A program made the position numbers and the translations under genes. A stretch of 64,000 bases of DNA. Origin: Yuukianura sp. NJ FZ-2021 (lineage: Eukaryota). The stretch is taken from NCBI GenBank assembly GCA_046563655.1, contig CM102285.1:6386001-6450000 (forward strand), in the 5' to 3' direction. The notes beneath the pieces were generated by a model. That model had not been told where the DNA came from, ran no database searches, and saw only the letters and a program-made list of their open reading frames with translations. Every line of letters starts with the position of its first letter. Positions within the stretch are counted from its first letter, which is position 1. Of this stretch, positions 2,034 to 21,563 are shown piece by piece.

Positions 2034-2788
2034 GCATTTTTGAAGCTTGTCAAGTGAATTACACATAATTGTTCACAATTATGTAACACCTTTTCCCAAA
2101 AACACAATCTAAAATAAATAAACTTCTATCTGTATACAATCGGCATAAACTCGGCTTGTGTAATTTGAAGCTTGCTGCAATAAAATATAATTGCTCTGAA
2201 ATTTTTTAATTTATATAAAAATTTAATTTATAATATAATAAAAATTTATTTATTTTTTCACACATTTAATATCGATGTGAACATTCAATCTTTCTTTCAA
2301 GTTTCAAGGTTCGATTAGTCGCGGGTTAAAAGCAACAAGATTTTGTTTTCACTAATTTGCCATATGATTCTGAAATTACAAGAGGTGGAAAAGTGCTAGA
2401 GATGTGCTTGCAAAACTAGTGAAATATTCCGTACTGTTTACGATCAGTCTCAACCTCTTTATCATTAAAAAAAGTCTTCCAGACAGCGGATGTCTGCGGT
2501 TTTACATTCCTACGAGAAGCTGAAGCGCGACTTGTGAATAGAAATTGAGGTCTTAAGTTATAACTACCATATGTGCAAAATAGCTCATGGGGTTTGGTGT
2601 TTGTTCTTGCCAAACCTTATGCAGTTTTTGCGGTTTTTCGCACGAGACTCCTATCCCCCTCCCTACTAAGATCAACACAGATTTTGATTTCAAATTTACT
2701 TCTGTTAAAATAGCTAAAGAAAGAAACTTTACAAAGTCTTGTTCAAAAAAGTACATTAATTAAGTACAATGACAGTAATTTGTGGAAT

Positions 2789-2913
2789 TGTTACGGATCG
2801 TTATTGGGCTAGTGCACTGCCGAGGGTAACCCCCTCGGTAGTGTTTATTTATACTCATAGTGTTGAGCCACTTTTACATAATGTTGGGCGTCATGTCCGA
2901 ACACTCCTACCCT
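2789..2913 (-). mobile_element. 3' end of an LTR retrotransposon: PPT (2904-2913) and ~115-bp LTR (2789-2903)
   Basis: The minus strand reads CGAGGACG...AGGGTAGGAG (PPT), then TGTTCGGA...TCCGTAACA. The LTR contains TATAAATAAA and a hairpin (CACTGCCGAGGG/CCCTCGGTAGTG on the plus strand). No partner LTR was found. Confidence 0.6.
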
Positions 2914-3244
2914 AACATTGTTGATCGTCCTCGATCATAATTATAATTATAATTTTATTATTAAATTTATGCCGTTATTATAAAGGAAAAATACATAATT
3001 AGTATATATGCTTTTTTGTTTTGTTTTTAAGTTTTATTTTGCTTTTTATATGATTTTTCTTACCTATGCTGTTGTCTTAGAGGTAGAAGAGAGCTTTTGA
3101 GTTAAAAGGTAGATTAAAGATGAAAATTAAGAATTCGTGATTCTACATTTACTACTACTAAGGTACTACAGAAAAGTTGAAAAAGAAAAATGAAAGAAAC
3201 TTAAAACTTTAGATTAGGACAAAACTTGCGTGATTTCATAAAAA

Positions 3245-3900
3245 TTTAGGCTGAATTCTGTGCGGAACTGGCAGAGGACGAAGAGGAAGAGGATTCACTG
3301 TCAGACTCAGACAGCTTGACCTCGGCTGGGGACAATCATAGGTGTTTCTTCTTCTTTTTCTTCTTCTATTTTTCCTCCTTGCCGAATATTTCTTCTAAAG
3401 TTGCCACCTTCGTCAAGTGTTCCGGATTCACTTGTTCTTCTAAAGCCTGTCTTTTCAGAGATAATTTCGTGCCTTCCTCTTTGGTGGGTATACTCCCCTC
3501 TCGTCCCGAACATGAGGCTGCGTCCACTGGGCTTGCTGGCGTGATATTTCTGGAACCTGGCGTGATATTTCTGGCGTGATATTTCTGATATTATTGGGAT
3601 TTGATTTGACGCTTGTGTATAATGATGTTCGGCTACGTTTGTCGTGTATGTGTGGGAAGCTCTAGCCACTTCGCCAGGTCGTGAGTGATTTGCATTTGCT
3701 GTACGAAAGCAGTGGGGGTGCTCTCCTGGCTTGTGGATGGATATGGAATAAAATTTTCCGAAAAAGATGTTTTTGTCCCGTTTTAATCGTCTTGTATATC
3801 TCCCAATACGCCCTCGTGAACTGATCTGCGTCTGATTGTGGTTCAGTTTATGGTCGTCAATATGACATTTTCGTGAGTATTTGTTTGGTTGACGTGACAG
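3245..3900 (-). pseudogene. Degraded ORF of unknown function upstream of the PPT/LTR (basic then Ser-rich C-terminus)
   Basis: Protein-like pieces lie in shifting frames, e.g. EPQSDADQFTRAYWEIYKTIK and ...EEIFGKEEK*KKKKKKKHL*LSPAEVKLSESDSESSSSSSSASSAQNSA*. Short tandem repeats of CCAGAAATATCACG at 3540-3590. Confidence 0.35.
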
Positions 3901-4227: not shown

Positions 4228-6506
4228 CTTGCAATAGAAAAAAAAATCGTTCGACCTTTGACCCCGATGAGGCCAAAGTCAAAATTTATGAAAATCAAAG
4301 GAGGGGAGGGCGCGCATTGTGTTTTACACTGCGTTCACCATGCTTGACACCAAACAAAAAATTAATTACGTTGACCCCTTCAAGGTCACGGAAGGTCAAA
4401 TAAATAAAAATTTATTTTTACAAAAATCATGTTGACTTTAAAAAGGTCAATTCAAAAACATAATTTATTTTACCCCGACCAGGTCAAATTTCATCAAAAT
4501 TTTGAAAAATTGTTGACCTTGCAAAAGGTCAAATCGAAAACATAATTTTTTGGCCCTTATGGGGTTAAATTTCAAAATTTATCAAAAACTAAAAAGGGAG
4601 GGAATTCAATGGGATGAACATTGTGTTGACCTTGACTGACCTCAACGTAAAAATTTGAGTTTGTAAAAAAACTCAAAGCAATAAAAAAAACCTTACTTTT
4701 AAAAATCATTTTAGTTCATAATTCGAGGTGAAATTCAAATCACCTGTAACTTAAGTAAATTTTCAACTCAAAAATATTTGACTACAAAACTTGACAAGAA
4801 CATGCAAGGCACAATGCCCTTTATTTATAAGATTCTGTAATTTTCAGAATAAACATGAAAACAATGTCAAATTGACAAAGCAATTTTAGAAGTTGAGATA
4901 CTTCGTAAAAATTCTCATTCTAATTCAAAATTGTACCGATATTTGTCCATAAACCTAACAATTTCATACTGATTAAAACAAAACCCAGGCATTTTGTTAA
5001 AAATTTCCACTTTGGGAAATAAATTACCTCTGAAATTTGTTTAACTTTGTATGTCGACTCCAGTTTCGCAAATACATGTTAAAGAAAGATTTTCATTGAG
5101 AAAATTAAATTCTCAGATTTGCTGAAACATGTAGGAGACTTCAAAGGTATTGCAAATTCAAGTAATAATTGCCTAACTAATTGCATCTGATTATTTAAAA
5201 TAAAAACTAAAATCATGATTCCTTGTACGCCGCCATTGAATTTGCTCTTAAGGTGAGGTAGAAACCTGAACTTCGCAAGTTCAAACTCAAAAAGCAGTCG
5301 GCTAAAGCGATTGAAGTGCAGAGTTAAAATGGTGTGTGACATGGTGTTTTCATGCAAAATAAATTTGTTTTACAAAAAGTTGCAAAAAGATTTATTTTTA
5401 ACTCAAACATTCAAAATCATGTCAAAAATTAAAAATTCCAAAAAGGACGCAGAAGTTACCAATAAAACCACAAGGACACCAAACTGAAAAGCTTAAAACA
5501 GTTTCCTTCACCTCACCAAAAACAAGGTCAACGAACCTAAGCGGTAACTCATGGAACAAAAGTAAGCTGTGTTGGTGGGTGAACTGATCAGTTCAATTCT
5601 TTAGATTATTTCTAAGTTTACTTATTCATATTTCAGTTCTAGTTTTCCAGTTAGTGTATTTTTACCCTACCAAAGGGGCAGGAAGGAAAGACCGTTCCTG
5701 GGGTTTTTCAATTTGTATCCAAAGTCAAACCCACATTCATTTCAGTGTTCACTTCTCAATTCAGTTCCATTTTTGAGCTTCGTCAATTAACTTCTAAATA
5801 AACATACTAGTAGTTTCATTCAACCAACGTCTTTTGAGCATCGCTTTCTTCTAACAATACGATCCAACACCAAGCTCTCCCACATTCACCTCATTTGAGC
5901 TATTCAAGCTGACCTTTGACCTTTCTGCAATTTATAATATTGGTTGTCATGTTCCATGTCACGCTCTCTATTGCAAACAGTTTTTAATTTTACATTATTT
6001 CATTTTTCTATTTTCAATTTTGCTCAATTTTATTTTTAGTTTTCTAGATGAACTTGGAGCCGCTGATGCACTTGGCTTCGTCATTCCTGACCCCGACCTC
6101 AGATGAACTCAGGAGAGTTCTTGCTCTAAGGAGGGAGGAATGTTATGAGATGAACATTACATCAGCGACAACTCCAACTTCACATCAATCCCCACATTCA
6201 AATCTGCTAATTAGTAATCTTTCTGTCTTTGAGTTAAAGCTTAAAACACAAAGGTCATTGCCTTTTAGATAAAAATAAATTTTAGTTTGCAAAATGTAAA
6301 ACAGGAGTAAAATGTAAAACTTTTAGCCTCGTTTTACTCCAGTGGTTTCCGGTCTGGGCCCTATAAAAAGACCCAGCGCTGCCTGTACATACAATTCATT
6401 CTGTTTTCTTGCTTCTGCCCGCTTGGACAGAGTTCAACTTTACTGCTCGACAGTTTGACCTCGGCGAGGTCAAACTGCCATTTTCCTTAAACTTTGAATA
6501 AAAATT

Positions 6507-6922
6507 TGTTGTCAAAATTAAACGCCCTTTTAATTTTGTTATTGATGGATCTTTTTAAGCAATGTTGCTGATTTTTATTTGGTCAAAAGAAACTTCAGAA
6601 AAAGAATCTTAAGTTTTAATTAGGACAGTTTCCTAGAGAGAGACTTGAAAGAGACTAACTGACTTTCCGGACTCCCGGGTCCTTTTGTTAACTGGCTTAG
6701 AATTTTCGGGAAGTTTCCAGAATATTCTGGAAGCTTCAAGACCAAAGCAACTAGAAAGGTTTTGAGGGTCCCCTATGTAATAACTTTGACCAGAAGTGTC
6801 ATATTTGGTTCCCCCTCAGCTCAACTTGTCATCGTAATTCAGATGTGAGAATCAGTGGTTGAGTTAACCTGTCAGCTAACTTTATATGAGAAAAGGTCAA
6901 GTTTTGACCTCTAAACTCAACA
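6507..6922 (-). repeat. 3' LTR of the copia element
   Basis: Direct repeat of 13743-14158. Preceded on the minus strand by PPT GAGGGAGAG (6923-6931). Confidence 0.97.
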
Positions 6923-7153
6923 CTCTCCCTCAAAAATTGACTTTTCCTGAGTTATTCCTACTTTCAACGTTTTAGATTTGTAAAGAAGATGAACAGACAG
7001 TTATTCCAAGAGTAAAACTTAATTCTAATTAATTGTAAGTTAACCTCTCCCAAATCCATATCTTACAGTAGGGAAGTAACTATCTATACAAAAATAGAAT
7101 TAGTCTAATAATTCTGTTTTTCTTTTAAATTTTTCTCGTTGGAATCTTGTTCC

Positions 7154-9442
7154 TCAGTCTTCTTCCGTTTCTTTCTTGCTTTCACTGACAGCATCCTGAA
7201 GTTTTGCAGCAGTGATTTTGATAATCGGAACTCTTTCCTTCCGAGCTCTGTAGTAACAGATACCAAGCGCAATACAAATCGCGATCATTGACGTCATTAG
7301 GAATCCAATTACAATTCCTGTCCATGGATTTTCTGTAAAGTAGGCTTCATGGGTGATTTTTATTTTCTCCATATTTTCTTCTAGCTTCTTGTCTTCATCT
7401 AGAAGCCCATGAAGTTCTAGCAGATTGGTCATGTTTAGCTTGTGACCTAAGTGCCAGTTTGCTTTTGAGGTGAAAATCCGGTCCTGTCCCTGGATGTGTG
7501 TTCCCTCGAAGATTGAACCCTCGTACAAGTAGTCATTGATTTTTATGCTGACTTCCTTGGGAATAGGGAAAACGTGATCTGGACAATTTGTTGTCTTTCC
7601 CCCGATTGTAATTTGGTTTCCGTAACAGTAAATGTAGTTGTTTTCTCCTTGTTGTTTGAGCTGGACAAAATCCTTCTCATCTCCAGGGTGAGTGGGCAAA
7701 CATTTCTCCACAGTGAAGTGTTTGGTCATTCCAGGAAGTTGTCCAGATGTACTACATCCAGCGTCTGGAGCGATGATGAGGATGTCATCGGCTGGTTCTT
7801 TAAAGTTGGCTCCGTATACGCAGTCTTCGTGTAGTGAGACAATAGCTTTCTTCGGTCCAATGTATTTAATTTCACAAGTTTGATTCTTGGTTTTGTGCAT
7901 CAAGGAGAAAGCATCAGCTTTTACTACTTTCAAATTTTGATCCAAGATTGGAACTTCAAAACGCATCTTCATGGCCATCTTGTCATAAGTCATGTGACAT
8001 GACTTTGGAGTTCCGAGATCCAGTGGGCATGAACTTCCACATGGGAGTGAAAAATTCAAATAGTCCAGAAATGGTACGAACAACTTTCTTTTCGTGTGCC
8101 ACTGACGATTAGTCTCCTTCAGAATTTGATTTCCAATCAAAAGCCTTCCAGTGATGGAAGAAATCAAAAAAGTTGTGTCGACTTGCTTTTCCTTAGACTC
8201 CAGGAAATCTCCAGCAAGTTTCTCCGTGAATTGTCTTAACTCGTCCAATGCTCTCCTATGGATATTTAAGCGTTTTTCGATTTCTTCCAGTTTCTTCGTG
8301 TGTTCCTGTGCCAAGTTTCCAAGTTCAGCCAGTGTCACCTTGTTTCCTGCAGAAGAAATGACAGCAGCAGTCCCCAGTCCAATGCTTGTAATCAGCGAAA
8401 TGACAAGCGTACTGAGGATGATTCCGGTCAATATGAATCTTTTGTGACGGTGATGAATTTCTGTTGTTTCTTCTGTTGGACACATTTTTAGAATTTCTGA
8501 GGTAAAAAGTTTGCTATAAATCTCCTCGCATCTTTCCTTGGCCATTTGAACATTATCCTGGTGGACGCTGTTGATGTCCAGCATTTCACATGGAGAGGTG
8601 AATTTAATCAGCAAATGCACTTGATTTGAGCCTTTGGTGACTTGAGTGTCACTTTTCTTCCATAGAACTGGAGAAGCCACTTGGAAATCACCGGAAGCTC
8701 CATGAATAAGTCCAAAAAATATCATCATCAGAAATCCAGCAGTGAACATGAGAGAAAGATTTTTGAATGTCCAATTGTTTGAAGTCTTTCTTTGTTCATG
8801 GAGAAAGTCATCGTTCCCACCAAAACACTTTCCCTTTGTCTTTTTCAAGAAATGATTTGGGTTTCCAAAGTCCGTTTCTTTCCTTTTTCTTTTGCCGTTT
8901 TTATGTGCATGTTGGTTCCACGGTGGCTCCTGTTTCCGTGGACCAGAATTGACAAGGTTCCTTCTCAAAAAATTTGAGTTTGGTGGAGCTGCCCTTGAGT
9001 AAAATCTTTTTTCTTGTGGACGAAGGACCTCAATGTAAGGATGGTTTGAGTGTCCACTTTTTCCGCTTTGACCTTTAACCTTGTTCCACTTCCCAAATTT
9101 TGAGTTTTCAAAAACTTGGGTAGTCACACTCCATTTAGGGTTTCTGTTTCTTCGGTTTTGCCCTTTTTCTTTCTTTGGGTTGAATTGACCCTTGTCAATT
9201 TCAGACTTTATGGCTTTTTGTTCTTTTTCAAAATTTTCAAACTGGACCTTCGGAGGGTCTATGTTCTGAAGGGTCTTCCCTCCTTCCTTTTGTGAGCGAA
9301 TTGCCACTAGAGCCTTAGCATTGGGCTCTCCCTGAGTCTTCAATCCAAGCATTGAGCGACAAAATTCAAATCTCCCGCGATTCAAAGGTTTAGTCAATAT
9401 GTCTGCCTTCTGATGTTCAGTTTGAACGTAGGTGACCTCCAC
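7154..9442 (-). CDS. env: RNase H C-terminus, basic linker and envelope (class I fusion-type) glycoprotein
   Basis: Begins with the copia RNase H end VEVTYVQTEHQKADILTKPL, then a ~190-aa K/R/N-rich linker. Then signal peptide LSLMFTAGFLMMIFFGLIHGASG (~8770-8690), furin site RHKR (8449-8438), fusion peptide FILTGIILSTLVISLITSIGLGTAAV and heptad repeat LAELGNLAQEHTKKLEEIEKRLNIHRRALDEL. Cys-rich region, sequons NFS/NQT/NMT, TM WTGIVIGFLMTSMIAICIALGICYY and a short tail. Confidence 0.85.
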   Translation of the reverse strand: MEVTYVQTEHQKADILTKPLNRGRFEFCRSMLGLKTQGEPNAKALVAIRSQKEGGKTLQNIDPPKVQFENFEKEQKAIKSEIDKGQFNPKKEKGQNRRNRNPKWSVTTQVFENSKFGKWNKVKGQSGKSGHSNHPYIEVLRPQEKRFYSRAAPPNSNFLRRNLVNSGPRKQEPPWNQHAHKNGKRKRKETDFGNPNHFLKKTKGKCFGGNDDFLHEQRKTSNNWTFKNLSLMFTAGFLMMIFFGLIHGASGDFQVASPVLWKKSDTQVTKGSNQVHLLIKFTSPCEMLDINSVHQDNVQMAKERCEEIYSKLFTSEILKMCPTEETTEIHHRHKRFILTGIILSTLVISLITSIGLGTAAVISSAGNKVTLAELGNLAQEHTKKLEEIEKRLNIHRRALDELRQFTEKLAGDFLESKEKQVDTTFLISSITGRLLIGNQILKETNRQWHTKRKLFVPFLDYLNFSLPCGSSCPLDLGTPKSCHMTYDKMAMKMRFEVPILDQNLKVVKADAFSLMHKTKNQTCEIKYIGPKKAIVSLHEDCVYGANFKEPADDILIIAPDAGCSTSGQLPGMTKHFTVEKCLPTHPGDEKDFVQLKQQGENNYIYCYGNQITIGGKTTNCPDHVFPIPKEVSIKINDYLYEGSIFEGTHIQGQDRIFTSKANWHLGHKLNMTNLLELHGLLDEDKKLEENMEKIKITHEAYFTENPWTGIVIGFLMTSMIAICIALGICYYRARKERVPIIKITAAKLQDAVSESKKETEED

Positions 9443-10261
9443 TTATTTCTCTTCAATTAAGTTTCTTGTGAAGTGATATCTCAGTTCGATATGCTTCGTA
9501 TTCTTATGAAACTGGTGGTTTTGGGTCAACTTAATGGCAGATTGATTGTCCACGTAAATTGGCGTTGGATTTGTCATTTTGATTCCCAATTCTTCCACAA
9601 ATCTCCGAATCCAGACAGCTTCCTTCGCTGCAGCAGCTAACGACACGTATTCGGCTTCACAACTGGATAATGCAATTGTGTTTTGTTTCTGACTCATCCA
9701 GCTTACCGGGCAGTCATTTATGAAAAAGACATATCCAGAAGTTGACCTTCTGGAACTTTGACATCCAGCAAAGTCCGAGTCGCAGTATCCAGCTACAGTG
9801 ATTTTGTTTGATTTGGGGCTGGAAGGAAGACGTAGCTCCATGGATCCCTTGAGGTAGCGTGCCACGTTTTTGGCCATCTTCCAGTGACTTTCGTCGTATC
9901 CAGTCAAATGTTGTGAAAGTTTAGACACTGCAAAAGCAATGTCAGGTCTCGTGCATCTTGCAACAAAAAGTAAGCTTCCAATCAATTCCCGGAATGGTAT
10001 GCCTCCAGTTTCTCCAGCCAGTACCTGTAGAGTAGTGTTAGGTTGCATGGGGACGTTGACTGGCTTACTTTCTTCGAGGTGAAAGTTCCTCAATATCTTC
10101 TTGATTTGTCCAGTTTGTGCCAAGTTCCAGCTCCCATCTTCTCCGTTGTTTAGTTCCAATCCAATGAACACTGAGGGTTTGGAGAAAGTCAGTGGGAATT
10201 TGTTGTTTAATTCTCTGACGACTTTCTCCAGGTCTTCCAGTCTTGGGCCAAGAGCTAGGGC
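9443..10261 (-). pseudogene. pol: Copia RT C-terminal half and RNase H (frameshifted from the upstream ORF; in-frame TAA at 9445-9443)
   Basis: Motifs FRELIGSLLFVARCTRPDIAFAV, GYCDSDFAG, RRSTSGY, SSCEAEY, VDNQSAI and TKHIELRYHF. Confidence 0.93.
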
Positions 10262-13200
10262 CTAATTTTTCCAGGTTCGGTGTCCATTTGAAATACTGAT
10301 GGCTCACTCTCCAGCTGGAGAAAACCAAGACTTTGCAGTGCTTTCTTCAGTTTTTCAAACCACATCAGCGGAGACTGCTTGAGACCATAGATTGACTTCT
10401 GAAGGTGACAAATCAGCGACTTTCCCTTTTCAAATCCATGTGGCTGTGTCATAAACAATGTTTCTTTTAGATCTCCGTGGAGAAAGGCGGTCTTTACGTC
10501 GAATTGAATAATCTCGTAGTTCCATGCACTGGCAACTGCAAGAACGATCCTAACAGATTCGTATCTAGCAACTGAAGCATAAGTATCGTGAAAGTCCACT
10601 CCAGGACGCTGCCAAAATCCACGGCAAACTAAACGAGCTTTGTAACGATCGATTTCTCCATCTGGCTTTCTCTTCAGTGCGAAGACCCAACGGTTGTCCA
10701 GGACTCTTTTCTCTGGAGACCATTTAACCAGACTCCAGGTTTTGTTTTTCTCCAGACTGTTAATCTCATCTTCCATTGCTCTGATCCACTCTAACTTTTG
10801 CGGCGAAGCGAGAGCTTCTTCATAATTGTTCGGTTCCAGGATCTCCAGTCGAGCAACATTTGCATGATATCTGGAAGGAATTTTAATTCCTTCTCTTGGC
10901 CGGAAATTGTATCGCTCCAGAGCGTGTGCTGGAATCTGTGCAATGTAATCTCCAGCAGTAGTTGAAATGGTCAATTTCAAATCATCCGTGCGTTGAACTT
11001 TCCAACTTTTTGGAGAAAGTGAGGATCCAGCTACATTTTCTTCATCCTGGCAGTTATGCTTTTCGGCATTGTCATCTTCTTTCTCCAGTAGTTTTTCTTT
11101 CTTCTCACTGGACTGACGATTTTCTTCATCTCCACTTTCTCCAGACTCCTCCTCAACCACTTCCGTAATTTTCACTTCCGGTTCTTTCTCCTCAAAAACA
11201 ACATTAGTTGCAATCACTATGGAGGCGCTGTCTGGATCAAAAAGTCTAAATTTTTTCTCGCAGACACCATCATAACCCACCAAGTACATTTTTCTGGACT
11301 TTGGTGTCCAGACTGTACGTTTCGCTTCTGGAATGTGGGCATAAGCTTTACATCCGAAGACTCGAACATTTCCGAGGTTTGGTCGCCTCCCCATGATTTT
11401 CTGAAATGGCGTTTGCTCCGGTGAGATGCGACTTAAGGTGCGATTGTGAATGTAGACAGAAGTTGCAACGGCTTCCCCCCATAGAAAGTCTGGAGTGGAG
11501 TAAGTCTGGAGCATCGCCCTTGAAGTATCTTTCAATGTCCTCATGGATCTCTCCACTCTCCCATTCATTTCTGGACAATAGGCTGCTGAAGTTTCGTGGA
11601 TGATTCCATTTTCTTCAAAAAATTTGTTCAAGGTTGAATTCACAAATTCACCTCCGTTGTCACTCCTCACCCACTTCATCCTGTTTCCGGTTTGCCTCTC
11701 CATGAAATGAATGTATCCCTTGATCGCTTCTGCAGCTTCTGACTTTCTCTCCAGAAAGTAAACAGTGCGAAAGTTAGTTGCGTCGTCGATTAGAAGGAGA
11801 AAATAGCTGGCTCCTCCCAGTGACACGACGCTCATTTTTCCAGATAAATCCATGTGGGTTCCAGTTCCTGGTTCCGAATTTCTTTTTGGAACTGAGTTGA
11901 AAGTCTTCCTGGGTTGTTTACCGAATTGACAATTTTCACATGTTTCCCGGAGTTGACCTTTGACCTGCTCCGGTGGAATTCCGTAGACAGCTCCGCGTCT
12001 AACGCTGGCCTGAATGTATTCAGTGTTGATGTGAGCGAGACGGCGGTGCCAAACATCCAAGTTGACTTGTTTGAAAGCCAGAAGTGCTTTTGGCTGAACT
12101 TTCACCGGGAGAAAGTTCATGACGTACATACCTTTGCTCACATGGCATGTAGGTCCAGGACCTTGTTTGTGCGAAAAACGAGCTCCTTCGCTGTCTCTTT
12201 CAATCTTGTATCCGAGGTGAGTCATCTGGAGTTCTGAGAGGAGATTAACAGCTCCAGGAATAAACAAAACATTCTTGAGTGTTTTGTATTGCCATGTACC
12301 GTCAGTAAGTGCAAGTAACTGAACAGTTCCTTCTCCAAGGGCATCAACGGCGGTAGAGTTTAGTTGGTCAACTTTCTCTGGGTTTTGAAAATCTTTGTAA
12401 TCCACAAACCAATCTTTGGAACCACAGATATGGTTTGACGCTCCAGAGTCAGCATACCAGGTGTCCTCCTGGCGTATTGGCCAAGGTTCGCTAGCCTGTC
12501 CAGGCCCTGGCGAACCACTTTTATTCCTTCTACGATCTTGACCAACAAAAGCCTTGGCATGGGGAAAGTCACTTTCTCCATCTCCAGACTTTTCACCTTC
12601 TTTCCGTTGTCCAAGGAAGCCATTCCTTGAAGCTTCTTTCTCCTTCCGCCCTCGAGAACCACCTCTCCCTTTCCCCTGCCCATGGTGGGACTTCTTGGAG
12701 AAAGGCCTTGTGTTTTGCTGAGATTCTCCTGAGGAAGCCTCCGAGTTTCCTTGTCTCAGCTTCGGACAGTCACGTTTCCAGTGATCTTCCGATTTGCACA
12801 AGAAGCAACCAGATTTCTTTGAAGAGAAGCCCTTCTTCCGTTCCTTGGTGGGGCTACTTTCTCTCCCCCTTTTTCCCTGTTCAGAGAGTGCCTTGAAAGC
12901 ACGGCTCCTTTCTTCTCTGGAAGCTCCTGCTGATTCTATGTTCGTTTGGTCAATTTGCTCCTTTTTCAACCGAGCAAAGAGAATGCTCATTGTCTGAGAC
13001 TCAGCTGGTACAGAGTCCCACGCCCTTTTCAGAGCCGTATAACGTGGCTCAGGAAGTGACGAGACAATTTTAGTCACAACTGTATCTTCCTCCATGTTAA
13101 CACCGATTTCTTTTAAATTTCTCCAAATTTCCTCCATCTCCGTGTACGCCTCAACTAAGTTTTGCTTATTACTGACCTTAAAATTGAAAAACGCGCTTAG

Positions 13201-13536
13201 AGTGTGCTGGCGGTTGATGATGCTTGAGTCCGAGTTAATGTCCTTTAGCTTGTCCAGGACTCCCTGGGCGGTGGTGCAGCCAACAATGTGTGTCATTTGG
13301 CTTGCATTCAGAGTGGGTACAATCACTGCCTGAGCCTGGATGTCCTTCTCGTCCCACGTCGTTTGAGCCCCACTTTCGTCAGACTCTGGACGCGGAGTTG
13401 TCCCTGAAGCAACATCCCACAACTTGACAGCCTTGAGGATCAATGTAATTTGCATCTTCCATCGGCTATAGTTCGTCCCATCTAGTTTAACCACGTGCTT
13501 CGTGTCAAACAATGGACGACTATCTCTGCTCGACAT
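10255..13536 (-). CDS. gag-pol: Copia Gag-protease-integrase-RT (N-terminal part) polyprotein
   Basis: Likely ATG at 13536 (MSSRDSRP). Copia Gag KLDGTNYSRWK, zinc knuckle CFLCKSEDHWKRDC, protease WYADSGASNH, WHRRLAH/CENC, integrase HMDL...SDNGGEF...VER, RT YKARLVCRGF, DVKTAFLHG and IYGLKQSP. Confidence 0.95.
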   Translation of the reverse strand: MSSRDSRPLFDTKHVVKLDGTNYSRWKMQITLILKAVKLWDVASGTTPRPESDESGAQTTWDEKDIQAQAVIVPTLNASQMTHIVGCTTAQGVLDKLKDINSDSSIINRQHTLSAFFNFKVSNKQNLVEAYTEMEEIWRNLKEIGVNMEEDTVVTKIVSSLPEPRYTALKRAWDSVPAESQTMSILFARLKKEQIDQTNIESAGASREERSRAFKALSEQGKRGRESSPTKERKKGFSSKKSGCFLCKSEDHWKRDCPKLRQGNSEASSGESQQNTRPFSKKSHHGQGKGRGGSRGRKEKEASRNGFLGQRKEGEKSGDGESDFPHAKAFVGQDRRRNKSGSPGPGQASEPWPIRQEDTWYADSGASNHICGSKDWFVDYKDFQNPEKVDQLNSTAVDALGEGTVQLLALTDGTWQYKTLKNVLFIPGAVNLLSELQMTHLGYKIERDSEGARFSHKQGPGPTCHVSKGMYVMNFLPVKVQPKALLAFKQVNLDVWHRRLAHINTEYIQASVRRGAVYGIPPEQVKGQLRETCENCQFGKQPRKTFNSVPKRNSEPGTGTHMDLSGKMSVVSLGGASYFLLLIDDATNFRTVYFLERKSEAAEAIKGYIHFMERQTGNRMKWVRSDNGGEFVNSTLNKFFEENGIIHETSAAYCPEMNGRVERSMRTLKDTSRAMLQTYSTPDFLWGEAVATSVYIHNRTLSRISPEQTPFQKIMGRRPNLGNVRVFGCKAYAHIPEAKRTVWTPKSRKMYLVGYDGVCEKKFRLFDPDSASIVIATNVVFEEKEPEVKITEVVEEESGESGDEENRQSSEKKEKLLEKEDDNAEKHNCQDEENVAGSSLSPKSWKVQRTDDLKLTISTTAGDYIAQIPAHALERYNFRPREGIKIPSRYHANVARLEILEPNNYEEALASPQKLEWIRAMEDEINSLEKNKTWSLVKWSPEKRVLDNRWVFALKRKPDGEIDRYKARLVCRGFWQRPGVDFHDTYASVARYESVRIVLAVASAWNYEIIQFDVKTAFLHGDLKETLFMTQPHGFEKGKSLICHLQKSIYGLKQSPLMWFEKLKKALQSLGFLQLESEPSVFQMDTEPGKIRP

Positions 13537-13726
13537 TTTGCAAACTTTCACTTTTTCCAAAACAAGTACAACCACAAGTTAGTCCGAGTCCAGAAAAATA
13601 AGTCCAACCACAAACTAGTTCAAGTCCAAAACCAAGTCCAAAACACACACTAGTCCAAGTCCAAAACAAAGTCCACTTTCACTTGTTGTCAAAACCTAAG
13701 AAACAATTCCAGCAACGCAGAACCTC

Positions 13727-13738
13727 CCTCTGCTACCA
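13727..13738 (-). promoter_or_regulatory. Primer binding site complementary to initiator tRNA-Met
   Basis: Minus strand TGGTAGCAGAGG, 4 nt from the 5' LTR. It is complementary to the 3' end (CCUCUGCUACCA) of animal tRNA-iMet. Confidence 0.9.
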
Positions 13739-13742
13739 AAGT

Positions 13743-14158
13743 TGTTGTCAAAATTAAACGCCCTTTTAATTTTGTTATTGATGGATCTTTTTAAGCAATG
13801 TTGCTGATTTTTATTTGGTCAAAAGAAACTTCAGAAAAAGAATCTTAAGTTTTAATTAGGACAGTTTCCTAGAGAGAGACTTGAAAGAGACTAACTGACT
13901 TTCCGGACTCCCGGGTCCTTTTGTTAACTGGCTTAGAATTTTCGGGAAGTTTCCAGAATATTCTGGAAGCTTCAAGACAAAAGCAACTAGAAAGGTTTTG
14001 AGGGTCCCCTATGTAATAACTTTGACCAGAAGTGTCATATTTGGTTCCCCCTCAGCTCAACTTGTCATCGTAATTCAGATGTGAGAATCAGTGGTTGAGT
14101 TAACCTGTCAGCTAACTTTATATGAGAAAAGGTCAAGTTTTGACCTCTAAACTCAACA
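13743..14158 (-). repeat. 5' LTR of the copia element
   Basis: Direct repeat of 6507-6922, adjacent to the PBS. Confidence 0.97.
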
Positions 14159-15344
14159 AAATTTCATTGACTCCGCATCAAGCGGAGAACCTAAAACTTG
14201 TAGTGTTGTGTTTCTTTCTTTTAGGCCTAAAAGGCCTTATTTCATTACAGGGTGAAGGATTGTACATCCTTGTTGAAGTTGGCTGGAATTTAATCCGGCT
14301 TTTGGAATCAGGAATTGTAACGTCGAATTTCGAGCCACCCGGAGATTTGGAAATCTTCAGGTGGGCCGTAATCGGACGATTGTAAAAAAGAACATAAGTT
14401 TTAATAGGACGAGTAAGAAAGCGAGGACTCAGCTTCTTTTCCACTTTCCCAAGAGGATTAAACAAAAAGAGGATTTACGACAAATGATCTTTCACAAGAC
14501 GGGCAAGTGGGAGTAGTTTTACACTTGTTAAACATGTGAATGTCAACTCATCAGTAGTCGACATTCATACAAAACGCCCAGATAATCAATTTGCATAGTC
14601 CCACAACTTCGTTCAATCTTGGACACTAATGACAAAACTGGATCATAGATCCTGGTCATTAACGTCCAACTTTGAACTAAGGTCGCTAAGCGTCCCTCAG
14701 TTGAACGACAAGCTAGATCAAGTGTAAAGTTATAAATATGAGTGGAACTCTGTTAGCGTTAAGTCATTCTCAAATCAGCTTTTGCAGTAAGCTTTCCGCT
14801 TAGAAGTAGTAGTATAGCCAGTCTTAGAATTTCTCTTGCTCTGAGCAAAACTTCCTAAAACTCTGTTAGGTTACTCGTAGATTCCACTCTTATGTGTCAC
14901 TTGGTGAAGGAAATTGGGAAATAAAGCTACAAACACACATCTCCATCGCTGCCTGTGAATCATTTCGTCCCACCACATCACTCAACTGTAGCAGAACAAG
15001 GTAAATGACAATCTCTCTCACTGTTGATCTAAAAACACAGCTCGTTATGAACAGCAGCTTGGAGATGTAACAGGGAGTACGGTGGGACCGGCACCACGTC
15101 TAAGGGTAGGATATGCATAGCTCAGGCGAAGGTTTTTGCGCGGGTAAAGCGGACCTCATTCTGAGGCCGTCAGATTTAGCAGTTTTCCTGAAGGGCCCGG
15201 AAGTGTTACACACATACTTTCAGTACAAGGACATTGTATGCCCTTGCACTGAGAGTGAGTGTGTGTGTGAGAGGATCTATCAATAAAGTTAGTTGATACG
15301 CAGCATCCAACAATGGTGGACGAGCTGAACGAGCTCTCAACTCA

Positions 15345-16691
15345 ATGCTAACTAGAAGTCAAACATCTCAATTAGGGAAGTCTATAAACGAGAAAAGTGA
15401 AAGTTCGAGAGTAGTGAAGGAAAAAAACAAAAAGAAGCCATCAAAGAGTGAATCCGCGATTAGTGAAAGTGGGAAAATAGAAAAACCAGAAGTTTTTTTC
15501 GAAACAGTGGACAGCTTCGACGCACTACTCAACGATTCGCTAGAAGAAGAGATAATAGAGCAGGACTCCAACATGGCCGACGACAAAAGTGGAGTTTCTC
15601 TCCCCGGACCCAGCCGACCACGGGACGACGCTGGACTACTGAATCGGAACCAACAAGTTCTCCTCAGGGGTGAGAAAAAACCCATTATGAAGCAGAAACT
15701 CACGGAAAGGTCGGTAAAGCAGTTTATACATAATTACGAGAATTGGGCCGAGGCTCAGGGGATTACAGACCAAGACAAGAAACGCTATTTCACGACAGCG
15801 TTTGGAAGTGATCTGGCCAATCAGTGGTTCTATGTCCAGTCAGACGCAGTCAAAAGCGTAGCGGTGACTTGGGACACGCTGAAACGAAGCTTCATCGCCA
15901 ACTGCCCAAAAGACGAAGTTGAGCGAGAATTACAACTCTACGATGTAGGTGATCACCCGCAAGAGCTCGGCGAAAAAGCATTGGCCTATATTTTTCGGAT
16001 CCGGGCTAGATTTGGCGAAAACTGGGGCAAGATGGCTGCAGAACATGCTGTAGAAGCTATTGTTAAACACATGCTGCCGCCAATCCGACGCTACCTCCAG
16101 TACCGAGGTGTGCCAGCAAATTGGGCCGATTTGGTGAAAATGACCGGAGAATACGAAGGCAAAGGGATGAAGGAAATCGATGACCTTAGTCCTTCGGCTG
16201 TTAAAGCTACTGTTTCAAAAACCAGAGTAGAGGAAAGTGACATTGCTAAACTGGCAAAAGCACTGGAGAATTTGCCAATACTCGCGGACTTAACCGTGAA
16301 AATAACAAATTTGGAGAGGTCAGTGAAAGCGGTAACTGACCGACAGAACGACAGAAATGGCCCACCTCAAACCGCTCCTAGACCACAGAGGGGTCAAGGT
16401 CAACCCAGACCCTACGACAATCGTAGCTGCTTCATCTGTAAGAAACGAGGTCATCTGGCGGCAAGGTGTTACTACAACAGAGCCAACGACGGCGGAGCAC
16501 AGAACCAGCGTAGCGGAGGGCCAAGCTATCAAAGCCCGCGAAACGGCAGAGAAAGTAACGGTCAATGGGGTTCCAGATACAACTCTCCCCCGAATTACGG
16601 TGGATTTTACCAACAACGAACAAACGGAAATCAAAATTCCGGGCAGGGAAACTTCCAAGGGCGAGCCGCCCAGGGCTCGCCTCGACAGTAA
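15345..16691 (+). CDS. gag: Gypsy Gag (448 aa)
   Basis: First ORF after the PBS, with zinc knuckle CFICKKRGHLAARC and a G/N/Q/R-rich C-terminus. Confidence 0.9.
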   Translation: MLTRSQTSQLGKSINEKSESSRVVKEKNKKKPSKSESAISESGKIEKPEVFFETVDSFDALLNDSLEEEIIEQDSNMADDKSGVSLPGPSRPRDDAGLLNRNQQVLLRGEKKPIMKQKLTERSVKQFIHNYENWAEAQGITDQDKKRYFTTAFGSDLANQWFYVQSDAVKSVAVTWDTLKRSFIANCPKDEVERELQLYDVGDHPQELGEKALAYIFRIRARFGENWGKMAAEHAVEAIVKHMLPPIRRYLQYRGVPANWADLVKMTGEYEGKGMKEIDDLSPSAVKATVSKTRVEESDIAKLAKALENLPILADLTVKITNLERSVKAVTDRQNDRNGPPQTAPRPQRGQGQPRPYDNRSCFICKKRGHLAARCYYNRANDGGAQNQRSGGPSYQSPRNGRESNGQWGSRYNSPPNYGGFYQQRTNGNQNSGQGNFQGRAAQGSPRQ

Positions 16692-16698
16692 CGGGGGC
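16646..16698 (+). promoter_or_regulatory. Programmed -1 ribosomal frameshift signal (gag to pol)
   Basis: Slippery heptamer G GGA AAC in the Gag frame (16646-16652). An 8-bp stem GGCGAGCC/GGCTCGCC follows, and its loop GCCC can pair with downstream GGGC. The -1 frame is the protease ORF. Confidence 0.8.
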
Positions 16699-19600
16699 AG
16701 GAACACACTCTCCAAATCTCGGAAACAGGATTGATCAAAGGGAACAACCGGAAAAATTCAAATTTAAAATTCCAAACACCAGAGAAATCAAAATTCATAG
16801 TGTGGCCGGAAATGAAGGTGGATCGAAGGTAGAAGTTAAGGTAAAAATCGGAGGCCGGAACATTCTTGCCGTCATTGACTCGGGATCTCCTTTGTGCATC
16901 ACCAAGGCCTCTCTAGCGGAAGGATTCAGGAAAATTCCAAACACTGTGGCAAGATTAAATCAGTTACAAGGAAAACTGAAGGACAAGGGCGTTGTGTTCG
17001 TTCCAATTGAGTTTGGAATGCTGACAGTAGATTACACTTGCATTGCCATTGATGACATCGAAGACGACTTACTAATTGGCGAAGATTTCCTAGAGAAATT
17101 TCTTATTCACATGGATCCCGAAGCAAGAATGTGTAGGTCACAAAGAACAGGAAATGTGCCATACGTTTCACAGAAAGTTGACCTTTGGAGCCATCATGGT
17201 ATCCAAATTGATCAAGCGGAAATGCAAGAAATTCCAAGAAGCAGACCTCGGATTCTTAGAATTCGAGCGGCCGAGAAAACAAAAATTCCAGCACGATCAA
17301 GGATCCTTCTGCCAATCCAACCAACGGGGCTAAGGTCAAATGAAGAATGCATTTTAAATGGATCGGAGAAAATTTACAAAAGTTGCCGCTTACTTATTCC
17401 AAGAATGCTGATCAATGGCGAAACACGAGCCATTGTGGTGACTAATCCAACAGAGGAAGATTCAAACATTAACAAGGACACAATTTTGGGAACGGAAATC
17501 AAGAAGGATGAGTATGAAGATTTGACATCGAGGTCACAAGAAAAATCTAGAATGCGTGTCAACCGCATCTCGATTGAGGACGAATTGAAACTGGACATCA
17601 ACCCTGAACTCGACAAAGAAGACAAGAGAAAGTTGCTTGAGGTGATACGGAAACATGAAAAAGCTTTCTCTTGGAATAGTCAAAACATGGGAAGGACCGG
17701 ACGTTTGAAATTTAAGATCAACACGGGTGACCATCCGCCTAAGCGAATAAGACCATACCCAGCGTCGGAGAAAGTCAGAAGAAATTCGGAAGGAAGTTAA
17801 AAGAATGATGGAAGTGGACCTCATCGAGCCAAGTTCATCACCATGGTCAAGCCCAGTCCACATGGTAGCCAAAAAGGACAGCACTGCGAAACGATTCACG
17901 ACAGACTTCCGGTTTCTGAATTCTATTACAACCAACGTCACGGCCTACCCTCTGCCCAGAATCGAAGACATCCTGTCCAGCTTAAGGAACGCAAAATTCA
18001 TCACCGTGATGGATTTATACGCTGGATTTTGGCAGATCGAACTGGATGACAACGACAAAGAAAAAACAGCTTTTGCTACACCGGAGGGGCTATTCCAGTA
18101 CAAAGTGCTACCGATGGGAATTGCTGGAGCACCTGGTCATTTTAGCAAACTAATGGACGTAATTTTAGCGGGCCTCAAACCGGAAGTAGTTGCATCTTAC
18201 GTCGACGATTTGATTATCCACAGTCTCACAATTGACGAACATGTTGAGAAATTGGACAAGGTTCTATCCAGAATCGAAGATGAAGGCTTGACCCTTCAAC
18301 CGAAGAAGTGCCACGTTGGATACCGGGAAACCAGGGTCCTCGGATTCGTCGTGGGGAATGGGGGAATCAAGATGGATGAAAGTGTACTGGCTGGAGTTAA
18401 GGACCTCCCCACACCCACCAAGGTCAAGAAGTTACAGCAAGCGCTGGGATTGTTCAATCATTACCGAAGATTCATCCCCGGATACGCCCAAAAAATGGCG
18501 CCATTGTACAATCTTTTGAAAAAAGACGCAAAATTCCAGTGGGGAAAGGACGAGGAAGACGCCTTCACCTTTGCAAAAGAAGCCCTGGTATCAGAACCGA
18601 TACTTGCCTTATTTCAACCAGGGTTGGAGACCAGACTGCAGACAGATGCAAGCACAGTGGGGATCGGAGCCACCCTAACCCAGATCCAGAAGGATGGAAC
18701 CGAAAGACCTGTGGCATTTATAAGTAGAACGCTGACCCAGGCAGAACAGAGATGGACAACTACGGAACAGGAATTGCTGGCGATTGTCTTTGCATTGAAG
18801 AAACTAAAACAATTCCTAGATGGTCATCCAGTCAAGATTTACACCGATCATCATGCACTATGCTGGATCCTGCAAGCGAAGAAAGAAGAAATTACTCCGA
18901 AGTTGACTCGAATGGCCATTAAACTCTCCGAATTCGAAATTACGGGGATCTACTACATCAAGGGGAAGAATAATCACGTGCCGGACGCCCTATCCAGATG
19001 CCCATGCGTCCCAAAAGATCCGATCCAGCAGGAGAAAGCGACAAAAAACCGGAAACCAGAAGGAGTCCGAATCATGTCAATAAGACCCGAGACCTTAGCA
19101 GAGTTGCAGAAGCGTAACACCAAAATGGAAGCAATTCGTAAGAAAATCTCGGATGAAAACGGAATTCATTATCGGATTATCAACGACATCCTATATTTTT
19201 TGGATGGGAGTGGCGTAACTAAGCCTTGCATTCCAGAGGAATTGCAGGACGAAGTCCTAGCTTCCTGCCATGACGACCCTCTGAGTGGCCACCTTGGATT
19301 CACGAAGACTTATGACCGTGTCAGAGGACGCTATTTTTGGCCAAAATTGAAGAAAAGTGTCTCTCAATTTGTGACGTCATGCCACGAGTGCCAGCTTAGG
19401 AAAATTCCACGGAGAAAGCCTTATGGAGAAATGCAGTGCATTCCTGTCCCGGACCAAGCATTCGATCACGTCCAAATTGATGTAATGGGGCCATTTAATA
19501 GGTCAGCTAAAGGAAATAAATACGTAGTCACCGCAGTGGACTACCTGACGAAGTGGATAGAAGCGAAAGCCCTTAGAAATGCGGACACGCTCGATTTGGC

Positions 19601-20661
19601 AAAATTTCTGGTGGACCAAGCGATTTGTCGCCACGGCTGCCCAAGGGTCATCCAAAGTGATCAAGGAAGCATCCTGACGAGCGATCTTTTCAAAAATATC
19701 AACCATCTGCTAGGAATTGACCACAACAAGAGCACAGCTTATCATCCTCAATCTCAAGGGCTCGTGGAAAAGTCACATTCAACATTGACAGACTGCATTT
19801 CTATGTACGTTAGCTCTAATCAGAAGGATTGGGACATTTTTCTACCGCATTTGGTCTTCGCTTATAATACTACAACTCAAAAGACCACAAGAATGACACC
19901 ATTTTTTCTAATGTACGGCCGAGAACCTAAACTACCAGCTTTAGCGCTACTACCGGAATACACAGCATGCCAAGAGGTCGACGACCTTCATAAGAGGATT
20001 TCTGAGGCCAGACTGCTAGCGAAAGCACACATCGAGGAGGAGCAAGAAAAATACGCCAAAAGGGTCAACTCAAAATTGACGCCGCCTCCGGAGTTTGAAA
20101 TTGGATCCGAAGTCGTCATTCGAAAATTTGCAAAAAAGAAAGGACTTTCGGCCAAACTCATGGAGTACTTCAGTGGTCCCTACATTGTTATGGAAAAGAG
20201 GTCACCAGTCAACTACGTAGTGGAATATTCGGCTGGCAAAGCTAAGCACCGCAAAACAGTCCATGTAGATAAGATGAAACCGTATTTACGGAGGAATAAG
20301 GATTTGCATCTTATTCATGAAAAAAGGAGACGAAGGCGAAAGCAATGCAGATTCAGGCTTTACAAATGAAGATCCACCAAGAGAGCCACCAAAAACTACA
20401 ACCGATGAGGAGGAGAACAAGGGGGAAGACAAATTAGGAACAATGAACATGACGGGAGACGCCCCGAATCAATCCACAGATTCAAATCATGATCTTAGCA
20501 AAGGAATAGGATCTGGAAAAGATGACGTCATGAAAAACTTAACGGAAGATGGAAAATCACTTAAAAGTCAAAATCAAGATCTAACTATCCACACATCTAC
20601 TCAACGTTACAATTTGAGACCCAGAAGGAAAAACGACCAAATTGTGAAGAAACAAAAGTAA
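16646..20661 (+). pseudogene. pol: Gypsy Pol (protease, RT, RNase H, integrase) with two single-base frameshifts (~17780, ~20322)
   Basis: Protease VIDSGS, RT SSSPWSSP, YPLPRIED and YVDD, RNase H TDAS/EQELLAIV/TDH, integrase HHCC, IDVMGP, SDQGS, a GPY motif and C-terminal RYNLRPR. Confidence 0.93.
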
Positions 20662-20747
20662 CTACAGGGGTTGCTAGGGAAGGCTCAAGTTATAGTGAAA
20701 GTCAGGGGAAAGTGAAAACTGATAACTACTGAATAATAATCTCAAGC

Positions 20748-21563
20748 ATGACCGACTACAGTCATGACAGTGACATCACTTATTTCAGTGACGAAAGCTA
20801 TGTTAGTCGCACCGGCAGTGAAAGAGAAAGTGAAAGTTCAATAGAATTTGGGGCGGAAAGTGAAGACAGAGATGGGCTCCCGCCACCATATAACCCCAGA
20901 TGGAGAGATTGGTGGAGGAACATCACCTTCAGCGACTTCAGTCGACGGCGGCTGCACCTGTCGCCGACGGACACACGTCAAACGCCCGAACAACGAATTC
21001 GATATTTGCGGGCATGCAACCTTTTGAGCAGGGAAGAGAAAGACGCAGCGGTTAGTTGCGTCAGCTACTGGCTCCGGGAAGGGGTTTCAAAATGTAAGGA
21101 ATCGGACGTCACAGCATGCTGGCATTGTCATCACTGGAAAATGATGACAGAAAAGGAGAGAATGGCGGCCGCCGACACCCGCAGGTATAGAGTTCCAGCC
21201 GTACCCACCCATGAGAACCGCGCAACCCGGGGTGCGACTGGGAAGCTGATAGTCCTCGGGATCCTCCTAGGAATGATACTATTGACAAAAATGGCAAAAG
21301 GTGAAATTACGAATACAACGATGATGGGATCAAGTAGCAGTGCAGAAGAAGAGAATAACGTTCCCTGGTACGAGGGGTCAATTATGATAATATTTGACGT
21401 CTGCTGCATCATCATGGTTGCCGTCATGGTGATTTTTGCAGTGAAGAAAAGATACGACGGAAGGTACTGCCGATGTCCCAGCTCAGGCGCAGTCCCACTT
21501 GAAGTCTATTTCCAGAACCTATCCTCAAACGAATTGCTGAATGGAATGGAGGAATCAACCTAA
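20748..21563 (+). CDS. Gypsy ORF3: 271-aa predicted membrane protein of unknown function
   Basis: Intact ATG-TAA ORF between integrase and the 3' LTR. Acidic N-terminus, Cys/His cluster, hydrophobic segments LIVLGILLGMILL and IMIIFDVCCIIMVAVMVIFAV, then KKRYDGRYCRC. Confidence 0.75.
   Translation: MTDYSHDSDITYFSDESYVSRTGSERESESSIEFGAESEDRDGLPPPYNPRWRDWWRNITFSDFSRRRLHLSPTDTRQTPEQRIRYLRACNLLSREEKDAAVSCVSYWLREGVSKCKESDVTACWHCHHWKMMTEKERMAAADTRRYRVPAVPTHENRATRGATGKLIVLGILLGMILLTKMAKGEITNTTMMGSSSSAEEENNVPWYEGSIMIIFDVCCIIMVAVMVIFAVKKRYDGRYCRCPSSGAVPLEVYFQNLSSNELLNGMEEST

Follow-up and report, generated by a model that had tools for sequence, protein, structure and literature searches.

An Endogenous Ty1/copia Element with a Probable F-Type Envelope Gene in an Arthropod-Like Host

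We analyzed 64,000 nucleotides from Yuukianura sp. NJ FZ-2021 (NCBI GenBank assembly GCA_046563655.1, contig CM102285.1, positions 6,386,001 to 6,450,000 of the forward strand), a stretch that we call the window and number from its first letter. Its minus strand contains a long terminal repeat (LTR) retroelement that is very probably an envelope (env)-bearing endogenous element of the Ty1/copia (Pseudoviridae) type. Downstream of gag and pol it carries a gene for a predicted type I glycoprotein of the kind represented by the fusion (F) proteins of paramyxoviruses and pneumoviruses, the F proteins of baculoviruses and the Env proteins of errantiviruses; the host appears to be arthropod-like, and this copy of the element is defective. 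The capture of an env gene is the step that leads from a retrotransposon to a virus. Such captures are known for retroviruses, for the errantiviruses among Ty3/gypsy elements and for some BEL/Pao elements. In Ty1/copia we know of no candidates other than plant sireviruses, with an "env-like" open reading frame (ORF) that has no traceable viral origin. If our reading is true, the last superfamily of LTR retroelements joins those that became enveloped, and the copia lineage described here may leave cells as retroviruses do.

The element and its env-like gene

The element is complete between its LTRs (7,652 bp, positions 6507-14158, minus strand; see Table 1 for all features). The two LTRs differ by one mismatch over 416 bp (6743 versus 13979), and between positions 5000 and 16000 no LTR pair other than this terminal one was found. 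The TG...CA ends, the 5-bp target duplication and a primer-binding site of the initiator-tRNA-Met type are all marks of Ty1/copia elements. We take the 11-mer primer site to be the complement of the 3' end of initiator tRNA-Met. The identical 11-mer lies past the 5' LTR in six relatives (L004, L010, L011, L012, L015 and L016), and initiator tRNA-Met is the usual primer in Pseudoviridae according to the profile of the International Committee on Taxonomy of Viruses (ICTV; PMC8515867). Contigs from all four sequencing runs that contain the element (X1 to X4) also include empty-site joints, in which position 6500 is joined to 14158 and 7,657 bases are skipped. This length equals the element plus one target duplication, so the boundaries are those of a real insertion. 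The element sits inside a very high-copy repeat (word depth up to 2004 at 6300-6568 and up to 820 at 14101-14360), and the empty-site joints may stem from other copies of that repeat.

The coding capacity upstream of env is of copia type. The 1093 amino acid ORF has, in this order, the Pfam domains Retrotran_gag_2 (E 8.4e-27), zf-CCHC, a protease-region barrel, rve (residues 555-654) and RVT_2 (residues 931-1083; E 6.7e-43). With the RNase H part, which lies downstream of this ORF, the order is the protease, integrase, reverse transcriptase (RT), RNase H order of Ty1/copia elements. Both a copia-type RT (RVT_2) and a copia-type Gag are present, the RT being truncated in this copy; the arrangement of Ty3/gypsy pol (RT before integrase, RVT_1, Integrase_H2C2) was not found. 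A preliminary description of the window, made from its letters, had recognized a copia element with integrase before RT, an initiator-tRNA-Met primer site and near-identical LTRs, and each of these points is borne out by the Pfam order, the primer site and the single LTR mismatch.

The pol gene of this copy has two lesions. Its RVT_2 match covers positions 1-154 of the 244 in the profile, and a stop comes next (10255-10257). Relative to the window, 22-23 extra letters stand at 10259-10263 in contigs of runs X1, X2 and X3, so the window copy carries a short deletion in the RT core with a frameshift. The remainder of pol continues in another frame; its RNase H part shares 44-60% identity with the RNase H regions of relatives, and a Pfam scan of the pol part at 9446-10252 gave no match of its own. 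The second lesion is a premature stop near the end of pol, where contigs of runs X2, X3 and X4 have a sense codon. The env gene of the window copy is intact despite these lesions. The preliminary description had also claimed recent activity. For the family this claim holds up, since the nearly identical LTRs, together with intact variants in the sequencing runs, speak for recent activity; it does not extend to the copy in the window, which is a recent insertion that is now defective, with its own pol broken.

What would the env-like gene encode? An open frame on the minus strand runs from 9352 to 7154 (732 amino acids counted from its first ATG), and env lies within it; no other part of the window is matched by the env profile. 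The first 19 residues of the env protein are hydrophobic (mean Kyte-Doolittle [KD] hydropathy 1.64), as expected of a signal peptide, and a transmembrane (TM) anchor and a short tail, again by hydropathy, stand at the C-terminus. The motif RHKR (residues 101-104; 8438-8449) is the sole R-x-K/R-R in the protein. It directly precedes a hydrophobic peptide (mean KD up to 2.33 in windows within residues 103-134), and a long heptad-repeat region (HRA) comes next. Cleavage at RHKR would give an N-terminal subunit of 84 amino acids (residues 21-104) and a membrane-anchored subunit of 427 amino acids (residues 105-531). All parts of the stop-free layout given in the preliminary description (signal peptide, RHKR, fusion peptide, heptads, cysteines, TM anchor and tail) could be located, and the two subunit sizes agree with those that it gave.

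The layout is shared by the family. An alignment of 36 relatives of env size has conserved blocks along the whole ectodomain, and the 3.5-residue periodicity of the family's hydropathy is strong at about residues 132-201 and again at 195-242 (power ratio up to 6.0). The ectodomain of the window protein has 12 cysteines (54, 74, 90, 237, 241, 251, 292, 310, 332, 350, 375 and 389). Among the 26 copia-linked rows the three before the cleavage site are kept in 96%, and all nine past it in 96-100%. Both numbers are odd, so at least one disulfide bond must join the two subunits if all cysteines are paired; the F protein of paramyxoviruses is built in the same way. Glycosylation sequons occur at residues 232, 289 and 439, the first being kept in 23 of the 26 rows and the second in 16.

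Upstream of env, a spacer of about 200 amino acids (8750-9352) is basic and of low complexity. It is not conserved in the nearest relative, and it far exceeds the length seen in most relatives, which have gaps of 37-75 amino acids between the end motif of pol and the N-terminal motif of env.

Table 1. Features of the copia element and of the surrounding window
Feature	Positions	Strand	Remarks
Target-site duplication, 3' side	6502..6506	.	same 5 bases at 14159-14163
3' LTR	6507..6922	-	416 bp, TG...CA
Polypurine tract adjoining 3' LTR	6923..6931	-	labeled by position and composition only
Env-like ORF, intact	7154..8749	-	531 codons plus stop; ATG 8749-8747, stop 7156-7154
Cytoplasmic tail (predicted), residues 501-531	7157..7249	-	about 30 amino acids; from sequence layout
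Transmembrane anchor (predicted), residues 476-500	7250..7324	-	membrane stretch within 475-502, mean KD up to 2.59
Cys-rich ectodomain core, residues 237-389	7583..8041	-	9 conserved Cys, 2 conserved sequons
Heptad-repeat region A, about residues 135-205	8135..8347	-	residues 136-185 heptad-like
Putative fusion peptide, residues 105-134	8348..8437	-	hydrophobic; directly past cleavage motif
N-terminal (F2-like) subunit, residues 21-104	8438..8689	-	84 amino acids; 3 conserved Cys, RHKR at end
Signal peptide (predicted), residues 1-20	8690..8749	-	hydropathy; small residues at -3/-1 by eye, no dedicated predictor
Pol end and open basic spacer	8750..9442	-	231 codons, env frame, stop-free
Premature in-frame stop near pol end	9443..9445	-	private to window copy among those seen
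C-terminal RT/RNase H part of pol	9446..10252	-	frame differs from upstream pol ORF
RT lesion: stop and frame change	10255..10263	-	other copies with 22-23 more letters
Gag-protease-integrase-RT (N-terminal part) ORF	10255..13536	-	1093 amino acids; Pfam
Tandem repeat, 35-36 nt unit	13556..13675	-	3.3-3.5 copies; copia leader, between primer site and gag ATG
Primer-binding site	13728..13738	-	11-mer, 4 bases past 5' LTR
5' LTR	13743..14158	-	416 bp, TG...CA
Target-site duplication, 5' side	14159..14163	.	5 bp
Ty3/gypsy element	15199-22723	+	direct repeats 15199-15312 and 22610-22723; gag, protease, RT-RNase H-integrase ORFs
BEL/Pao fragment	26304-26810	+	Pfam Peptidase_A17, E 5.1e-28
TBP fragment	35140-35715	-	host-like coding piece
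AAA_11/AAA_12 helicase piece	50476-51063	+	host-like coding piece
TipE-like sodium-channel subunit ORF	55451-56620	-	Pfam, E 5.2e-23

Relatives, history and host

The env protein belongs to a large family. An exhaustive HMMER search found 576 representatives with E-values of at most 0.001, of which 316 have E-values of at most 1e-10 and 119 of at most 1e-30. A word-indexed protein search found no relative with the single env protein and only P0003 with the family alignment, and a scan of a viral contig collection for env gave no relative. When the pol domains accompanying 25 long env matches were typed by Pfam, 15 matches were copia-type, nine were Ty3/gypsy-type and one had no family. Twelve of the copia-type matches are whole gag-protease-integrase-RT-env ORFs (1,741-2,005 amino acids), and these are the nearest relatives of the window env; relatives with env fused to Ty3/gypsy pol are more distant. 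BLAST typing of 154 env relatives gave 35 with copia pol, 23 with gypsy pol and 96 with neither on the same protein. In public gene models the relatives are labeled only as "uncharacterized" or "unnamed" proteins.

A scan of metagenomes yielded 36 env loci, 19 of which have a copia RNase H directly upstream. Pol and env share a frame in 16 of these 19, and 15 lack an intervening stop; four loci (L004, L010, L011 and L012) are single open frames of 1,860-1,902 amino acids, and the LTR pairs of L004 and L012 are 100% identical. These 19 loci and the 12 whole polyproteins are independent records of the linkage between env and copia pol. Across 21 polyproteins the hydrophobic core of env begins 14-54 residues past the last conserved pol motif; a methionine lies within 25 residues before the core in 17 of them and is absent in four, which thus lack a nearby start codon for a separate env. 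Five gypsy-linked relatives (P0075, P0100, P0102, P0105 and P0107; 2,306-2,686 amino acids) also have env fused in frame to pol, so the stop-free junction is not peculiar to copia. One further locus, L003, has an intact env ORF (2048-3619; 523 amino acids) with its own methionine and no pol within 2 kb upstream; a non-autonomous element may include it, or it may be a solo or domesticated env.

Does the linkage reflect common descent? We built a pol tree of 123 rows, labeling as env-bearing those rows that the env profile identified. The window falls in a clade of 25 rows with 99% support, 22 of them env-bearing and three truncated at contig ends; all 85 env-less rows lie outside it. In all, 22 of the 24 env-bearing rows of the tree fall in this clade. 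In a search with integrase-RT, the twelve best matches, labeled env-bearing by the env profile, are 1,575-1,909 amino acids long, and lengths of env-less elements start at identities of 39% or lower. For 11 whole copia polyproteins, pol identities of 0.34-0.46 and env identities of 0.21-0.39 are correlated (r = 0.556), a value reached in 10 of 5,000 permutations of a Mantel test. Env is a hallmark of an old and diverse copia clade and is not private to the element in the window. Across this clade it diverged together with gag-pol, and most members have one stop-free frame.

The copia env is also related to env proteins of Ty3/gypsy elements. A comparison of the copia-env profile with the gypsy-env profile gave a probability of 100 and an E-value of 6e-93 over 436 columns, and by this comparison the two are homologous over their whole length. 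A careful tree of 48 env rows has a single branch (support 77/48) with all 26 copia rows on one side and all 22 gypsy rows on the other, and a single change of label suffices in 74% of 200 bootstrap trees. Quick env trees concur, except for the gypsy row P0045, which lies at the boundary. Two env-bearing copia polyproteins, P0223 (1875 amino acids) and P0254 (1702 amino acids), lie outside the main env-bearing pol clade, and the env of P0223 is found among gypsy env on a long branch. For these two, copia might have acquired env a second time; under approximately unbiased (AU) tests, however, one clade is not rejected for either gene (env p = 0.162; pol p = 0.399).

The simplest reading is that a copia lineage acquired env once, long ago, the source being a gypsy element or the same kind of virus, and that env and pol co-diverged thereafter. 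The preliminary description had proposed an independent env capture. That env is linked to copia pol stands; the gene is not private to one element, however, and is shared with gypsy elements. An independent viral capture and an exchange between the copia and gypsy superfamilies are not distinguishable, and the direction of transfer cannot be told.

Several features of the window and of the env relatives concern the host. The window contains a BEL/Pao peptidase fragment and a TipE-like gene, from which we judge the host to be arthropod-like and the element to be a copia in an animal; TipE is an insect sodium-channel subunit family (PMC3240667). Two env relatives carry springtail names (CAG7733176.1 of Allacma fusca and LOC110855167 of Folsomia candida). 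A Collembola-specific Copia clade, "CoCol," has been defined from RT/RNase H alone in a metazoan survey (PMC11889832). The element is also represented in run X4, which has a second organism label and comes from another study: 68% of its sampled words occur there, together with the empty-site joint and with pieces that are at least 99% alike. Three explanations suggest themselves: the source of the run is closely related to the host, it is the same species under another label, or a transfer took place recently. The Ty3/gypsy element in the window has a third ORF (ORF3, 20733-21563; 276 amino acids) with two hydrophobic stretches; as a candidate for a second F-type env it was ruled out, having neither an env-profile match nor a Pfam family.

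Likeness to fusion proteins and possible function

How close is the env family to known fusion proteins? When the env family profile was compared with the sequences of the Protein Data Bank (PDB), the F precursors (F0) of paramyxoviruses and pneumoviruses made up 50 of the 60 best rows (best E 1.2e-5); a second family profile gave 46 of the 60 best (best E 6.1e-5). Profile positions 91-205 line up with residues 60-173 of the F0 chains, with the small subunit's end, the cleavage site, the fusion peptide and HRA all in register. The Pfam family Fusion_gly (PF00523) matches three of 36 members of the env family (best E 1.2e-5). For two relatives, the language-model neighbors in the Atlas are F0 (0.90), Baculo_F and Gypsy-env clusters, at 0.85-0.90, and the ten best named neighbors all belong to one family or clan. 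The window protein itself has several marks of a class I protein of F type (predicted signal peptide, TM anchor and short tail, a basic site directly before a hydrophobic peptide, and a long HRA), and the ectodomain of env is likely to have the F fold, as far as profiles and layout can tell.

A number of results weigh against the interpretation of the gene as a working fusion protein and of the element as a replicating one. Pfam gives no PF00523 or PF12259 match to the window env protein at E-values up to 0.1, and the same protein, compared singly with PDB sequences, gives seven rows, all with E-values of at least 0.47 and none of them F0. The link to F comes through family profiles at E-values of about 1e-5, over the part that is most coiled-coil-like. 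The Atlas model of one relative is poor (predicted template modeling score 0.44), with best structural matches at a template modeling score of only 0.44. A membrane-proximal heptad repeat B is weak at the family level (best power ratio 2.6, residues 441-461), about three membrane-proximal heptads being legible by eye in the window protein. Only 17 of the 26 copia-linked rows have R-x-K/R-R in its strict form, with R104 nearly invariant in the family. The copy in the window, its pol broken, is unable to replicate on its own. Selection is judged from a sample, the 40 listed of 207 differences between copies. In favor of constraint, 24 of 30 coding differences over the element are synonymous; of those in RNase H, ten of 11 are synonymous and the eleventh is the private stop. 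In env five are synonymous and two are not. Every pair of loci is saturated at synonymous sites, so that no proper dN/dS can be given, and pairs with broken copies are unreliable for it; non-synonymous change is far below saturation (for example, pN 0.34 and pS 0.82 for the window against L001).

The preliminary description had assigned the protein to class I fusion proteins of F type. The family profiles, the Fusion_gly matches and the Atlas neighbors uphold this for the family, while the window protein on its own stays under the thresholds.

Could the glycoprotein be conserved for something other than fusion outside the cell? It might anchor Gag-Pol at the ER or at other membranes where particles assemble, serve direct passage from cell to cell or block the receptor against superinfection. 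The ICTV profile gives Pseudoviridae no extracellular phase (PMC8515867), the stop-free pol-env junction in 15 of 19 loci would tether the Gag-Pol precursor to a membrane through the env signal, and the weak heptad repeat B fits such roles as well. We nevertheless regard a non-fusogenic glycoprotein as unlikely. A conserved basic motif directly before a hydrophobic peptide and a long heptad repeat, all in register with F0, is what marks a primed fusion machine and would be costly for mere anchoring, and the same env family includes relatives in gypsy elements. F-type Env of gypsy elements has been modeled as similar to F of respiratory syncytial virus (PMC13524379), a likeness that bears on the case without equating our gypsy-linked matches with those proteins.

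A more basic objection is that the class I layout is a look-alike, in which another fold attracts F0 matches by its coiled coil and hydrophobic composition. The profile matches span the fusion peptide and HRA only, the rows other than F0 among the best 60 are coiled-coil proteins (ten and 14 of 60 in the two lists), the single env protein finds no F0, and the structural matches of the Atlas model stay under 0.5. We consider a look-alike improbable, given that F0 rows dominate both lists and keep their register across the small subunit's end and the cleavage site, that Fusion_gly is found in three of 36 members and that the ten best Atlas neighbors of both relatives agree on one family or clan. 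Moreover, the two longest structural alignments of the poor model (341 and 345 residues) are to clusters that bear Baculo_F.

An assembly chimera, or a gypsy env fragment nested in a copia element, can be excluded for practical purposes: Logan contigs do break at several places between pol and env, and the window is rich in other retroelements, but env, spacer and RNase H are covered by contig pieces that overlap (8675-9235 and 9206-9846), the terminal LTR pair stands alone, pol and env identities are correlated, and the same junction, mostly in one frame, recurs in 19 independent loci and 12 whole polyproteins.

We return to the reading of env as an F-type glycoprotein of a copia element. The signal peptide would take the protein into the endoplasmic reticulum (ER), where it would be glycosylated and its disulfide bonds formed. 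A furin-type protease could then cut past RHKR into a small N-terminal and a membrane-anchored subunit, and membrane fusion would be driven by the hydrophobic N-terminus thus exposed, together with the long heptad repeat. Copia particles budding through membranes that bear the protein could in this way enter other cells. Fusion, envelopment of copia particles and cell-to-cell transfer are thus functions that env may have, to judge from its sequence.

How would the protein be made? In most members there is no stop between pol and env, and translation of the genomic RNA must therefore run into env. Env would be made either through a Gag-Pol-Env polyprotein with an internal signal or through an in-frame spliced RNA that supplies a start codon. 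Internal signal sequences operate in the polyproteins of flaviviruses and pestiviruses; among retroelements we know of no single Gag-Pol-Env polyprotein with an internal signal as an expression strategy. If the polyprotein is the answer, the env signal would direct the growing polypeptide to the ER and signal peptidase would separate Pol from Env, leaving Gag-Pol tethered to the same membrane into which the fusion protein is inserted. It is tempting to combine these elements into an enveloped, potentially infectious branch of hexapod Pseudoviridae, perhaps "CoCol," that makes a single Gag-Pol-Env polyprotein with an internal env signal. We put this combination forward tentatively, as a possibility about which we have more doubt than confidence. 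It raises the question of how a membrane glycoprotein is translated from the end of a Gag-Pol polyprotein.

Comparison with known systems

The viral F proteins share several features with env of the copia clade. The proteins of PF00523 (paramyxovirus and pneumovirus F) and PF12259 (baculovirus F) have the same domain order and similar sizes, with profile matches in register and a place among the Atlas neighbors. They differ in their carrier, an RNA or DNA virus there and a retroelement here, and heptad repeat B is weak and the window env below the family thresholds here. Among retroelements, TelKA is gypsy-type. It is an LTR retroelement of bdelloid rotifers with a paramyxovirus-F-like env (Rodriguez et al. 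2017, PMC5408684), and this env of about 600 amino acids, with RXXR, fusion peptide, coiled coil and conserved cysteines, resembles the one described here. In contrast, TelKA is placed among retrovirus-like lineages, not copia (PMC5408684); the comparison is by description only. The Env of lokiretroviruses likewise resembles F of Mononegavirales (PF00523) and has an RXKR site (Wang and Han 2020, PMC7947760). These are vertebrate retroviruses on the Retroviridae side of the RT tree, and their env is a separate gene (PMC7947760).

The closest parallel is that of the metazoan Ty3/gypsy errantiviruses with F-type ENV (Chary and Hayashi, eLife 2026, PMC13524379). They too have gag, pol and an F-like env with a furin site and a fusion peptide, are multicopy and recently active, and their env and pol co-diverge (PMC13524379). 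The homology of copia env with gypsy-linked matches over 436 columns, described above, belongs to the same side. The difference lies in pol, which is Ty3/gypsy there and Ty1/copia here (integrase before RT, RVT_2, copia gag); the errantivirus study kept only elements classed as Ty3/gypsy (PMC13524379). In addition, env usually forms one frame with pol here, whereas the main text of that study has no wording on fused or single ORFs or on splicing (PMC13524379).

Plant sireviruses share with our element the copia superfamily and a third coding region downstream of pol (PMC8515867). Whether their ORFs are envelope genes is still unclear according to the rotifer paper (PMC5408684). A plant host does not fit the present element, given the BEL/Pao peptidase fragment, the TipE-like gene and the springtail-named relatives; by description, its animal host and its traceable viral-type protein family set it apart from sireviruses. 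In its account of Pseudoviridae, a family without extracellular phase, the ICTV profile limits env to plant sireviruses (PMC8515867). An env-type gene in the whole copia clade departs from this description of the family, and not from its pol-based definition. Errantivirus and Anakin are listed as env captures in a 2025 overview (PMC12440569), and the literature that we searched, with paper supplements and Repbase outside its scope, contains no animal Ty1/copia element with env.

A copia env might account for the existence of a Copia clade peculiar to one host group, and it would offer a further, independent system in which to study how the linkage of env and pol is maintained. Compared with the systems above, what is new here is the capture of env in an LTR superfamily where it was not established for animals, together with the unusual layout of gag, pol and env in a single frame.

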